Source of the DNA: a virus
Strand: one strand, 5' to 3'
DNA length: 64,000 nt
IMG/VR virus record: IMGVR_UViG_3300021962_007022
Coordinates: 4,245 to 68,244 of that record
Part shown: in pieces, positions 10,943 to 17,407 of the stretch
Layout: every line of letters begins with the position of its first letter
Position numbering within the stretch: position 1 is the stretch's first letter
The notes under the pieces: generated by a model
Databases searched by the model: none
Seen by the model: the letters and a program-made list of their open reading frames with translations, nothing else
What the model was told of the DNA's origin: nothing
Made by a program: the position numbers and the translations under genes

Positions 10943-13900
10943 CTAGTTATTTATAATAACAGTTTCATATGTTGTTTGAATGGCTGTATCATAATTTGTG
11001 TCTGTTGCCTTATCGGTTATTCTAGATGTGGAGGTTGACTTAGATGTACCAACCATTGTACCAGCTCCAAAATCTGTCAAGTAAGCAGTAGATGTATCAA
11101 ATGCTGTAGCAACAGACGTTGTTCTAGTTGTATCAATTACTAATTCAGATGTGTCTGTATTTGTTAATAATTGTGTTAGTCGTGCTGTTTGTCTGTCACC
11201 AGATTCAAATACGGTTGCAGTTTCTACAGAGGTAAGTGTCTGATATTCAGTGTTTCTAATACTGAAGTCAATAACTGTTGTTGTGTTGACAGATGTTAAA
11301 AATACCGTTGCACCACTTGATGTGGTATACTGAGTTTCTGTACCATATGAAGTAGATGTTGATGTATTAATTAGTGTGCCCTGGTTTGTTTGTGTAGCTG
11401 TCGACTTACTTGTCAACATATCACTAATAGTTACAGTAGTAGTGTTAAATGATGTGATGGTGCCAGTGAATGTATTTCTAGATGTGCTAACTAATGTACC
11501 AGCGCCTGAATCAGTCTGGAATGTAGTAGAAGTACCTCTGGCTGTATCAGTATTGACCGTAGTTGTTGTAGCAAATTGTGTAATCTTACTAGAGCCTGTA
11601 ATTCTTGCTGTTTCTGTAACATATGCAGTTGATGTAGTTAAGAAAGTTGCTGTATCTCTTGTTGTTGCAAGACCAGTGCTATAAACAGTATCAAATGCTG
11701 TAGTTGTTGCTTTTTGAGTTAGTGGACCTGTGGTATATATTGTATTGTATGCTGTAGTTGTGCTCTTACCAGATGTTGTCAACGTATCTTTAGATGTACC
11801 AAATTCTGTAAACACTGTTGGATAAACTGTTAGTGTGCTCTTAGATGTACCATAAGCAGTTGTTACAAATGGATCTGTAGCAAACGCTGTTGTAAACACT
11901 GTAGATGTTTGCTTACCACTTACATATCTTGTGTATCTTGTTATTGTATTCTGAGATGTATCCTTTAACGTACCACCACCAGAGTCAGTCTGGAATGTGG
12001 TAGCTGTAGATATCACTGACTGTGTAATTAGATAAACAGTGTCAAATGCTGTTGTAGTATTCTTTGTTGTATTGAATAGCGTACCGCCACCAGCAGCTGT
12101 CTGGAATATTGTTTCTGTAGTCTTAGATGTGCCAAAAGATGTAAGAGCTTGGGTTTGTCTGCTTGTATCAATTACGGTTGAGTAAGAAGACAGATATGAT
12201 GTTGTAGTGTTAATTGTTGATTGATACTCAGACAGATATACTGTTGTTGTATTCTTAGAAGTACTTGTTAGAGCAATAGTTTGACCAGCAACTGTATTTT
12301 TTGTTGTGTCATACATTGAAGCTGTAGTCTTAGATGTTAGAAAGTATGTACCACTTGCTGTTATAGTAGTTTTTGTTGTTGAAGTTGTCTTATTTGTGTT
12401 TGTGGAAATACCTGTTGAGGTTGTCTTAGATGTACCAATTAATGTACCAGCCCCTGAATCAGTCTGGAATGATGTTGTTGTATCAAACACAGAAGATGTC
12501 TGGAATATAGTTTGTGTATTGAATGTAGTAGTTGTATCATATGCTGTACCCACAACAGTTTCAAATACAGTCTCTGTACCAAAACTACTTGACATCAAGT
12601 ATTGAGTTTCAGTGCTGTTGGTTGTATCAATTGTAGTCAATCTAGCTGTAACAGTTGATTTTTCCACAGCTGTAGCTTTAGTAATAAGAGACGATGTGTC
12701 CTTCAATGTACCAGCACCAGAGTCAGTCTGGAAGACAGTCTGGTATGTTGTGTTAATATGGGTTACTGTATTTTTGGCGGTATCATAAGATGTTGTAATA
12801 ACAGATGATGTTGATGTTGAAGTGCTTTTACTTGTTGATGTTGATTTAGATGTAGCTAAAGTAGAATCAAACACTGTATCAAAAATTGTTGCCAAACTAC
12901 TTTGTGTTGTCTTAGTTGTGTTATATGCTGTACTACGTCCTGTTAACGTATTGAATGATGTTGTAGTATCAGTTGATGTGGCAATATCAGTAACTTTAGA
13001 TGTTCCTACTAAAGTGTTGTAATGGCTCAATGTGCTCTTGCCAGTAATTGTTGTTGTAGTTTTGTTTAGTGTAGTTGCAAAGCTAGTTAGGAATGATGTC
13101 GAGCTGTCAAATACTGTTGTTTGATTTGTACCTCTTTTTGTATCAAATACTGTTGTCTCAGTTGTTGATGTGTTGAACTGAGTTGTGCGAGATACTGTAG
13201 CAAAGTTACTAACGTAAACTGTTTGACGAGTTACACTTGTAGGCTTGAATGTAGCTTGAGAAGTACCAAAGAAGGTTAAAATCTCTGTACCCTTTGACAA
13301 AGTTGTATTTCTAGATGTAACCTGGCTTGTATCAAATGTTGATACAGTTAAGAATGCTGTAACAAATAGAGATGTCGTTGTTGCATTTGTATCATATCCC
13401 GTATCATACGTTGTTGTTGTATTTGTCTGATAAGAAGACGTTGTTGTTCTAGATGTGCCAGTAGCAAAAATTGTAGATCTACTTGTATCAAATACTGTTG
13501 AAGAAGTTACCAGAGTATTACGAGAAGTTGATGATGTTACAACTGTTAATGTATTAAATGCACTTGTTGTATCATATACAGTTGTTGTTGCTGTATCAAA
13601 TACAGTAGATGTATTTTTACTTGTAGCATATGCTGTGCTAAATGTTATATAACGTGTAACTTGGTTTGTATTATATGATGTTTGGAATAATGTTGTTGTA
13701 GCAATTAATGTTGGGTTTGTTGTCTGGAATGATGTATCCCTTAGAGTATTTCTTGTTTCAAGAGCAAATGAGGTATCAGTAGTTCTACCAGTTAAAATAT
13801 CTGTTGAAATAGTTGTTAAGACACCAGCAATTGTTTCATATGTTGTTTGGATGTTAGTGCTAAACAATGTTTGTGTAACAACAATTCTATACTCTGTTAG

Positions 13901-16900: not shown

Positions 16901-17407
16901 TGTTACACCAGTAGTTTCAAATACTGTTGATGTTGTTTTTGTTGTTGCATAGGATGTAGCAATGACTGTATCAAATACAGATACTGTATTAAATATTGTC
17001 TGGTAAGCTGTAACATATTGAGATACAGTATTCTTAGATGTAGCAATAACTGTATCAAATACTGAGATATATGCTGTTGTTGTTGATTTAGATGTTGCAA
17101 CAGTTGTATCAGTGGCCTTAGATGTAGAGTAGGCAGTAACAAATGTTGTAGTTGTACCTGTTCCAATATTTGTATTGAATGTTGAAGATACAGTAGTTTG
17201 CGTAGAGTATGCTGTAAGTAGTTCTGTTAATCTAATTTGTTCAATTTGAAAACTTGTCTCAATAACACTTCGTGGTGTCTGTTTTTTAATTTCAACTAAA
17301 GCGTCTGCACTAGGTGCATTGACAAATACAACACTACCACCAGAAATGGTATAATCGGTACCTAGTACCTGCAATACTCCATTTACTTTAACTGTTAGTG
17401 TACTCAT
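10943..17407 (-). CDS. 2154-aa Thr-rich virion fibre candidate: self-complementary beta-hairpin arms around a central Gly-rich (polyglycine, gp38-adhesin-like) domain
   Basis: Long ORF between gp7 and gp8; TxTx[F/Y/K/R]x repeats; central domain ATITAPAGAVSVVIKAWGGGGGG...GGGGGAYVQKT...GADGRVQFIW at ~15215-15885. Confidence 0.8.
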   Translation of the reverse strand: MSTLTVKVNGVLQVLGTDYTISGGSVVFVNAPSADALVEIKKQTPRSVIETSFQIEQIRLTELLTAYSTQTTVSSTFNTNIGTGTTTTFVTAYSTSKATDTTVATSKSTTTAYISVFDTVIATSKNTVSQYVTAYQTIFNTVSVFDTVIATSYATTKTTSTVFETTGVTNKSTTTVYDTTITTIFDSNRTTTTVYSTAYTTVYATETAYETNRNTVYNTNFATETSKSTDTTKATSTVYDTLYASSYGTTTVFNTSKDTNLATSRSTDTTVSTSKATNTTTTFVTIFDTAGSTTRSTTSLYVTVFNTSKSTASVFETAFVTVFNTSKLTSTSKSTTSLFNTSTVFTTVYDTGYNTSKSTTSLFNTSTSFNTSYATNFATTTSFETNIATQTTVSPNTARSTTTIFNTATSVITTTAFGTTTTFNTTYATNFATTTAFDTNILTETNRGTSKATEKTIATSKATATSRSTTTLFNTTTSFDTTTTFGTTTTFDTSYTTTYQTTSTSEQTDTYNSGSATITAPAGAVSVVIKAWGGGGGGGSGMVVGSQGGGGGGGGGGAYVQKTVNVTGGVTQFTYNVGLGGNGFGNPPGAEVDDQFSYADQGGSSTVTGTGVNIDAGAGGGGQNAWPDSSIPANVYAGIGGFGGFASGGDVNTAGTAGNGNQYVGGGAGGAAASGGAGGAGGVDGVNNGNGSAGSAPGGGGGGGSPNTQSNGGDGANGADGRVQFIWTIQSSVNTSRITSAATSRATDTSRATATSKSTATSKSTTTTFNTTTTFNTTYQTTTSYVTGYQTLTIFGTSRGTTTVFDTARSTAAATGTSRNTTSIFDTATSSVTSTTFVTTYLAATTTVFVTSRSTTTIFDTARGTAAVTGTSVATTTAYNTLVATSTSTSKATATSVATTTVFDTTTTFETNFGTARNTSKATDTTFETNFGTSKATDTTFSTLFNTAAATSKSTATTTTFGTAYATTTAYDTIYSTVFETNKTTDTSTATSKSTSKLTASAFQTTTAYNTDTTFETNRNTVFNTVIATDTSRDTVILTSKGTSTIFETAIDTAYNTNKTTTSVFNTVFNTAKNTTSVFDTTIDTAYATNIATATSKFTTNVTNITTSTAFETAYATEIATSKSTSSVFDTAYATSTVFDTGPNTTRNTITQSVYATTSSTLKGTDTSILTEYRIVVTQTLFSTNIQTTYETIAGVLTTISTDILTGRTTDTSFALETRNTLRDTSFQTTNPTLIATTTLFQTSYNTNQVTRYITFSTAYATSKNTSTVFDTATTTVYDTTSAFNTLTVVTSSTSRNTLVTSSTVFDTSRSTIFATGTSRTTTSSYQTNTTTTYDTGYDTNATTTSLFVTAFLTVSTFDTSQVTSRNTTLSKGTEILTFFGTSQATFKPTSVTRQTVYVSNFATVSRTTQFNTSTTETTVFDTKRGTNQTTVFDSSTSFLTSFATTLNKTTTTITGKSTLSHYNTLVGTSKVTDIATSTDTTTSFNTLTGRSTAYNTTKTTQSSLATIFDTVFDSTLATSKSTSTSKSTSTSTSSVITTSYDTAKNTVTHINTTYQTVFQTDSGAGTLKDTSSLITKATAVEKSTVTARLTTIDTTNSTETQYLMSSSFGTETVFETVVGTAYDTTTTFNTQTIFQTSSVFDTTTSFQTDSGAGTLIGTSKTTSTGISTNTNKTTSTTKTTITASGTYFLTSKTTASMYDTTKNTVAGQTIALTSTSKNTTTVYLSEYQSTINTTTSYLSSYSTVIDTSRQTQALTSFGTSKTTETIFQTAAGGGTLFNTTKNTTTAFDTVYLITQSVISTATTFQTDSGGGTLKDTSQNTITRYTRYVSGKQTSTVFTTAFATDPFVTTAYGTSKSTLTVYPTVFTEFGTSKDTLTTSGKSTTTAYNTIYTTGPLTQKATTTAFDTVYSTGLATTRDTATFLTTSTAYVTETARITGSSKITQFATTTTVNTDTARGTSTTFQTDSGAGTLVSTSRNTFTGTITSFNTTTVTISDMLTSKSTATQTNQGTLINTSTSTSYGTETQYTTSSGATVFLTSVNTTTVIDFSIRNTEYQTLTSVETATVFESGDRQTARLTQLLTNTDTSELVIDTTRTTSVATAFDTSTAYLTDFGAGTMVGTSKSTSTSRITDKATDTNYDTAIQTTYETVIINN
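10948..10955 (-). promoter_or_regulatory. T4-type late promoter TATAAATA upstream of gp8
   Basis: Exact TATAAATA on minus strand ~28 nt upstream of gp8 start; gp33 present in window. Confidence 0.65.

Follow-up and report, generated by a model that had tools for sequence, protein, structure and literature searches.

A single chain that goes out, makes a binding domain and pairs with itself on the way back occurs in the ultralong complementarity-determining region (CDR) H3 of bovine antibodies, in which a two-stranded beta-ribbon stalk of roughly a dozen residues per strand bears a knob, and in streptococcal antigen I/II, whose N- and C-terminal segments pair, as an alpha helix and a polyproline helix, into a stalk with a tip. 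In phages, an out-and-back fold with an inserted tip is already known from the needle of T4 gp37 (D10-D11, PDB 2XGF), described as a homotrimer carrying seven iron ions bound to His, in which residues 882-931 and 960-1009 build the stem and residues 932-959, inserted between these segments, the receptor-binding tip (PMC6957217). The cyanophage Pam3 fibre gp24 (7ypx, 7yfw) ends in domains of the TNF-like and the glycine-rich kind, set on a trimeric alpha-helical shaft of ~10 nm and described as recognising the host receptor (PMC9608196). Here we analysed a stretch of 64,000 nucleotides (nt) of an uncultured virus (IMG/VR record IMGVR_UViG_3300021962_007022, positions 4,245 to 68,244; "the window" below), which carries among T4-type baseplate genes a long, Thr-rich open reading frame (ORF), referred to here as the fibre ORF. 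In its product two arms of about 440 amino acids (aa) flank a glycine-rich core (Table 1), and the arms are complementary to each other when one of them is read backwards.

The fibre protein shares with the gp37 needle the out-and-back topology, which is seen here at the level of sequence as a mirror axis centred on the tip in 11 of 11 full-length sequences. It differs in that its arms are ~9 times longer (440 residues, compared with ~50 in the needle) and contain no His in 878 residues, in contrast to the His-bound iron of gp37, for which the accessible text describes neither a Thr ladder nor a code of aromatic and basic pairs. A phmmer search of the C-arm against all PDB chains gave no matches at E ≤10, gp37 included, and in sequence searches the stalk was covered by no Pfam, PHROG or PDB entry. 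With Pam3 gp24 the protein shares the TNF-like plus glycine-rich fold of its core (aa 504-732), which is here inserted between long beta arms instead of ending the chain. In the openly accessible full-text literature we found no account of a fold-back fibre with a Thr ladder or a mirror code. We propose, with a probability of about 0.8, that the ORF encodes an accessory baseplate-wedge fibre of an uncultured T4-like phage, whose arms pair by folding back and hold a tip at the far end.

Mirror complementarity of the two arms

The preliminary description of this stretch had reported that the arms, at positions corresponding to aa 63-506 and 733-1173 of the fibre ORF, match in antiparallel direction at a single register, with about 85 complementary key residues, no basic-basic pair, and a spacing of 4 or 6 residues acting as a register code. 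To compare the arms we took every second residue (the Thr face) and set the N-arm (aa 65-503), reversed, against the C-arm (aa 733-1171), pairing residues p and q for which p+q=1236. At this one register the pattern of Thr/Ser versus key residues agreed at 214 of 220 positions. Over the 121 registers scanned, the mean agreement was 0.517 (standard deviation 0.082) and the second best register reached 0.659, while arms compared in parallel direction peaked at 0.702; when the C-arm spacing units were shuffled 2000 times, the top-scoring register of each shuffle gave 0.646±0.023, with a maximum of 0.759. Shifted and shuffled registers thus score far lower, as expected of a register code. The 220 rungs include 128 pairs of Thr/Ser with Thr/Ser, 48 aromatic-basic, 22 aromatic-aliphatic, 8 aromatic-Gly/Ala/Pro and 5 aromatic-aromatic pairs, and none that is basic-basic. 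Key residues face each other in 86 pairs, exactly one member being aromatic in 79 of these; shuffling of partners gave 43.3±4.6 such pairs with a maximum of 61, and none of 20000 shuffles reached the observed number. An irregularity said to be mirrored in the two arms was present at aa 393-397 and 839-845. The mirror score of the fibre ORF was 305, compared with at most 16 in the window's 16 other ORFs of at least 300 aa. A search for inverted repeats in the DNA that would match the arms found none, the longest of 7 pairs being 29 nt at 72%, indicating that the symmetry was selected at the level of the protein. An inverted repeat as its origin was rejected, as none is present and inversion could not set Thr opposite Thr.

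The spacing of the key residues is handed. In both arms of the window protein, read along the direction of the chain, 18 of the 20 steps from an aromatic to a basic residue span 4 residues, and 23 of the 28 from a basic to an aromatic residue span 6. Read from base to tip across the 11 full-length sequences, an aromatic residue in the N-arm is succeeded by one in the C-arm after 2 rungs in 177 cases and after 3 rungs in 16; in the opposite sense, from C-arm to N-arm, the step takes 3 rungs in 128 cases and 2 rungs in 72. Likewise, the two diagonals of the window protein differ, p+q=S-4 (S being the sum at the axis) being rich in aromatic-aromatic pairs (21 of 49) and p+q=S+4 in aromatic-basic pairs (27 of 51), and such handed statistics were seen in all five sequences examined (the window protein, L008, L013, L014 and L016). 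Handed spacing of 4 and 6 is what antiparallel self-complementarity needs: the unit aromatic-x-Thr-x-basic-x-Thr-x-Thr-x is its own antiparallel complement, and irregular departures from it make the register unique. On the second face of the ribbon, which holds 47 Asp/Glu, we found no pair code, the largest deviation being hydrophobic-small pairs (z 2.4). Neither arm has a solenoid-type or constant repeat period; the autocorrelation maximum was 0.654 in both, compared with a null maximum of 0.64±0.025 and a 99th percentile of 0.71.

Homologues were sought with the gp7-like protein encoded upstream and then with the fibre tail as probes, and the linker that follows the arms supplied conserved peptide patterns for searching. 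The full-length set consists of the window protein, seven sequences from viral contigs (47-84% identical to it) and three further distinct ones from metagenome contigs. All 11 have a single dominant, gap-free mirror axis. Among the homologues, rung agreement ranged from 140/150 to 251/263, with 34-70 aromatic-basic pairs each; the arms vary from 299 to 525 residues and are always equal in length, around cores of 22-237 residues. The pairs also survive an alignment that is blind to the mirror: under MAFFT, 368-423 of the 429 window pairs mapped onto mirror pairs in six of seven homologues, and in the shortest, L016, 174 of 429 did so while 153 were gapped. Indels confined to one arm were looked for and were absent. 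Insertions and deletions are matched in length at mirror positions, as in L015 and L018, with 54 extra residues after both aa 428 and aa 816, and in L014, with 12 fewer at both aa 277 and aa 966; deviations of up to 8 residues from the exact mirror position reflect alignment ambiguity in repeats. Substitutions behave in the same manner. Changes between a Thr-Thr rung and a full key pair occurred on both sides at 13 rungs in L014 (2 one-sided) and at 5 in L013 (3 one-sided), and the aromatic residue swapped arms 4 times in L014, once in L013 and twice in L016. The four closest relatives show no compensatory events, as expected at their similarity. Key pairs thus move or swap arms on both sides together, and the covariation that the preliminary description had proposed as a check favours pairing of arm with arm.

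Several short viral contigs (e.g. L003, L006, L007, L010 and L011) stop within the Thr-rich gene. It seems to be a breakpoint for short-read assemblies, so that protein databases probably under-represent the family. When the tail (aa 1173-2154) was used as query, none of 8000 scored candidates reached E 1e-5, which probably reflects composition and carries no information on distribution; in the ESM Atlas its best score was 0.81, under the meaningful level, and no model was present there.

Tip domain, second hairpin and the DLP_6 counterpart

The core between the arms gave the only Pfam match of the fibre ORF, PF21722 (Gly_rich_2; aa 513-725, 35.3 bits at a gathering cut-off of 24.3), and a profile search of the ORF found no PHROG family. 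The core had 282 relatives at E ≤0.001 among 1.84 billion representatives, and a 35-sequence alignment drawn from these yielded an AlphaFold2 model of the core with a predicted local distance difference test (pLDDT) score of 93.5. The best Foldseek match of this model was Pam3 gp24 (7ypx_A; E 9e-9, template modelling (TM) score 0.67, 235 columns, 24% identity), other matches in fold being the tail-tip chains of mycobacteriophage Bxb1 (9d93) and the ALK/LTK glycine-rich domain; phmmer against PDB sequences gave a chance-level match alone (E 0.65). Identity to relatives differs between arms and core: L005 is 74-91% identical to the window protein along the arms and 5% in the core, while L014 is 42-58% identical in the arms and 60% in the core. 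Changes in length fall mostly in the distal stalk. Since the gene encodes distal stalk and tip in one uninterrupted segment, a single recombination with mirror-placed ends can swap both and leave the pairs intact. The core is probably a tip of the host-recognition type that is swapped between close relatives, and its similarity in fold together with this swapping suggests that it may recognise a receptor.

The preliminary description stopped before the last ~980 residues, which carry a second conserved hairpin. Its local mirror score was 65 in the window protein and 54-88 across all 11 sequences; the null maximum over 20 block shuffles was 23. Hairpin 2 has 145 residues per arm and closes by a two-residue turn, which in L014 contains Asn-Gly; such a turn is possible only in an intra-chain hairpin. 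In the rest of the tail (aa 1548-2154), local scores of ~26 around six Gly turn motifs were marginal relative to the same null maximum. Axes linking hairpin 1 to the tail scored 32-49, near the whole-protein background of 30-39, and their positions were inconsistent. Complex prediction with three copies of the hairpin 2 apex (130 residues, 11-row alignment) gave 0.01 against a mark of 0.42, the fold of the apex itself being uncertain. Two weak extra axes recurred among the homologues, pairing aa 263-317 with 1716-1770 (8 of 11) and aa 1001-1143 with 1439-1596 (5 of 11), with scores of 33-45 relative to the same background; they could reflect side-by-side packing of the feet of the hairpins, or chance.

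A tblastn search of the fibre against 50,697 phage records gave one match, to gp7 of Stenotrophomonas phage vB_SmaS-DLP_6 (DLP_6), 40.7% identical over aa 1016-1255 (E 6e-10). In DLP_6 gp7, aa 716-966 pair with aa 983-1233 at a mirror score of 168, and this hairpin resembles the one described here in its Thr ladder, its one dominant mirror axis, its code of one aromatic residue per rung and its aromatic-to-basic spacing of 4. It differs in being fused to gp7 instead of forming a separate gene, in having arms of ~250 aa around a 16-residue loop with no tip domain, and in being preceded by a separate globular domain. In the accessible text of the DLP6 paper, gp7 is mentioned merely as wedge initiator (PMC5349666). 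The phages Cr30 and RHph_I1_18 have gp7 with no Thr-rich ORF behind it; given the fusion in DLP_6 and these two phages without a hairpin, the fibre is an optional add-on of gp7. We also observed in DLP_6 gp7 a short outer stem (aa 533-573 with 1242-1282, score 25), which may enclose the globular domain (~aa 600-715) and the long hairpin in a nested arrangement.

The locus and the probable N-terminal anchor

The start of the fibre ORF overlaps the stop codon of the gp7-like ORF via ATGA, and the gene order is gp6, gp7-like, fibre and gp8-like, with relatives of gp6 and gp5 upstream of the gp7-like gene (Table 1). The gp7-like ORF matched phrog_17744 (E 4.5e-140) and PF23786 (33.1 bits, cut-off 27), and neither of these gp7 profiles matched the fibre ORF. 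Its product has its closest cultured relatives, all <50% identical, in T4-like phages of Stenotrophomonas, Caulobacter, Rhizobium and Sinorhizobium; a megablast search with the gp6-gp7 region found no match among the 50,697 phage records. The rest of the window carries T4-type tail, replication and auxiliary genes.

Table 1. Coordinates of the fibre protein's parts, of the flanking genes and of the DLP_6 counterpart (nucleotides refer to the window unless stated otherwise)
Feature	Residues (aa)	Nucleotides	Strand	Basis or remarks
Whole fibre ORF		10943..17407	(-)	2154 aa, ~1/3 Thr
N-terminal domain, probable baseplate anchor	1-62	17222..17407	(-)	homologue identity, profile matches
Hairpin 1 N-arm	63-503	15899..17221	(-)	Thr ladder at every second residue, key residue every 4 or 6
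Core/tip domain, TNF-like plus glycine-rich	504-732	15212..15898	(-)	PF21722, AlphaFold2, Foldseek
Hairpin 1 C-arm	733-1173	13889..15211	(-)	mirror complement of N-arm, p+q=1236
Linker, conserved, without regular ladder	1174-1257	13637..13888	(-)	foot of both hairpins
Hairpin 2	1258-1402 paired with 1403-1547 (p+q=2805)	12767..13636	(-)	tight turn aa 1401-1404
Remaining tail	1548-2154	10943..12766	(-)	six repeats, Gly-containing turn motif; possible short hairpins
gp7-like baseplate wedge protein		17404..19389	(-)	661 aa; directly upstream of fibre ORF
gp8-like baseplate wedge protein		8869..10920	(-)	directly downstream of fibre ORF; phrog_438 E 2e-73; weak PF09215
DLP_6 gp7, "baseplate wedge subunit protein"		8995-12861 of L052		AMQ65900.1, Stenotrophomonas phage vB_SmaS-DLP_6, KU682439.2

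The N-terminal domain is conserved (58-85% identity among 10 aligned homologues), as is the linker (51-92% identity to homologues). A profile of the N-terminal 72 aa of the 11 sequences matched the N-terminal region of 9k4a, a K1 capsule depolymerase, at its aa 133-168 (E 4.9e-7). Similarity to PF03906 (Phage_T7_tail) was weak, at 16.9 bits in the window protein with a cut-off of 25.2; 8 of the 11 sequences matched it, the best at E 8.5e-4. The first 54 aa of the fibre weakly match positions 32-83 of this T7 fibre N-domain profile, and the gp7-like ORF ends (17404-17480) in a Tyr-x-Gly-Asp-Gly...Phe-x-x-Pro motif. By a presumed resemblance to T7 gp17, the anchor might be split across the junction of the two genes, the C-terminus of gp7 supplying the missing first part of a T7-type anchor domain.

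Two other observations concern the wider locus. On the minus strand, a gene for a 1945-aa DUF4815 protein (3020-8857, E 1.5e-51) is followed by one for a 569-aa protein (1300-3009), and the two products match successive parts of the phrog_358 profile (unknown function). In DLP_6 the gene after gp8, in the position equivalent to that of the DUF4815 gene, is annotated "VlrC protein". The DUF4815 protein and its 569-aa neighbour are probably the main fibre or spike proteins of this phage group. Elsewhere, two adjacent ORFs (57961-59136 and 59662-60651, minus strand) both match the Nol-like carbamoyltransferase family phrog_1601 (E 8.5e-59 and 2.1e-42).

Proposed fold-back pairing and its alternatives

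In the arrangement that we propose, the chain would leave a 62-residue anchor, run out for ~440 residues as a beta strand, form the globular TNF-like plus glycine-rich tip and return for ~440 residues antiparallel to its own outgoing strand. On one face of the resulting ribbon each rung would set Thr opposite Thr, or an aromatic residue opposite Lys/Arg, an aliphatic residue or Gly/Ala, and the irregular 4/6-residue spacing of the key rungs would permit one register alone. The tip would act as a host-recognition module exchanged between relatives along with the distal stalk, and the second hairpin and further short hairpins would follow. The strict alternation at every second residue and the abundance of Thr suggest the beta conformation, and the gene order points to attachment next to gp7. 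Fold-back pairing is well supported. That it closes within one chain we infer from three features: pairing begins at both edges of the core whatever the length of the core, two axes are present in one chain, and hairpin 2 turns on two residues.

Several points weigh against this arrangement. Mirror covariation alone cannot separate pairing within a chain from pairing of two antiparallel chains. A structure prediction of the arms, which the preliminary description had suggested, gave no stalk model: for the apex of L005, the closest short-core homologue (100+100 arm residues plus loop, 8 sequences), AlphaFold2 returned a pLDDT of 34.2, a predicted TM score of 0.15 and hardly any secondary structure. 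The ribbon is largely polar on both faces and carries no pair code on the second, so that a free two-stranded ribbon this long need not be stable. L072 has 2 basic-basic pairs, the other ten sequences having none. As for the tip, its receptor binding is deduced from similarity in fold alone, and other homologues bear unrelated small tips, DLP_6 having just a 16-residue loop.

The alternative that survives best is itself a form of fold-back, in which three folded-back chains bundle into a six-stranded, trimeric needle, an enlarged and iron-free stem of the gp37 type; the fibre may then be shorter than 150 nm, with tilted strands. We regard it as a real, if minority, possibility. The preliminary description had envisaged one two-stranded ribbon unlike trimeric fibres, and whereas its antiparallel pairing of the arms stands, its free single chain is less well supported, since the solved structures closest to the anchor motif and to the fold of the tip are those of trimeric fibres or spikes. 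Among these are the depolymerases of the 9k4a type, which are trimers, and Pam3 gp24, itself a trimer; the weak similarity to PF03906 points the same way. In addition, the +4 register is rich in aromatic-basic and poor in aromatic-aromatic pairs (4), a composition that a second interface would tolerate; the spacing grammar alone explains these statistics, however, and Thr/key agreement at +4 (0.651) is at the null level, so that a single register is coded. The needle would also require the uncoded second face with its Asp/Glu to be buried. Moreover, the DLP_6 hairpin belongs to the gp7 chain, and T4 has one gp7 per wedge. In the Pam3 trimer, the tip domains are described as making just loose contacts (PMC9608196).

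Pairing between molecules, the N-arm of one lying antiparallel to the C-arm of another in an extended dimer or chain, is improbable. The mirror covariation fits a homodimer of antiparallel chains, with the two-fold axis at the core, equally well, yet an extended dimer allows one axis and the protein has two (1236 and 2805), which would force an open-ended polymer. Against it also stand the turn of hairpin 2 on two residues and the position of the axis, which always falls on a loop or globular domain of 22-237 aa with pairing from the edges of that domain. Least probable is a reading in which the mirror pattern arose as a by-product of evolving repeats and the arms form no continuous paired ribbon but a beta-solenoid or a mucin-like, disordered spacer: spacers are typically rich in Thr, insect antifreeze solenoids have a similar Thr-x-Thr face and AlphaFold2 gave the arms no structure, but there is no constant repeat period, DNA inversion, of which none was found, cannot yield Thr opposite Thr, and a by-product cannot account for complementarity over identity, matched indels and two-sided compensatory changes.

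Returning to fold-back of a single chain, we consider it possible, at somewhat less than an even chance, that the fibre is one polypeptide forming a free two-stranded antiparallel ribbon of ~440 residues per strand, at most ~150 nm long (440 residues x 0.33 nm, by arithmetic only) and ~1 nm thick, with a register set by the aperiodic, handed side-chain code; each baseplate would carry six tethers with exchangeable tips; as part of the same tentative reading, the ribbon would be a protein analogue of the nucleic-acid stem-loop, evolving by compensatory changes. While an inserted tip on an out-and-back fold has its precedent in the gp37 needle, there is a substantial chance that this single-chain architecture is categorically new. 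If the ribbon exists as proposed, it would be by far the longest two-stranded beta structure known, and a rare protein whose fold a pairing rule reveals from the sequence and covariation can verify, as with RNA. Its register code would be of use in protein design for long, thin and programmable beta stalks. The similar hairpin in DLP_6, a cultured and published phage, makes the claim directly testable at the bench. For the phages themselves, the protein would represent a new class of host-reaching fibre, whose length and tip are altered by swapping one segment of one gene.

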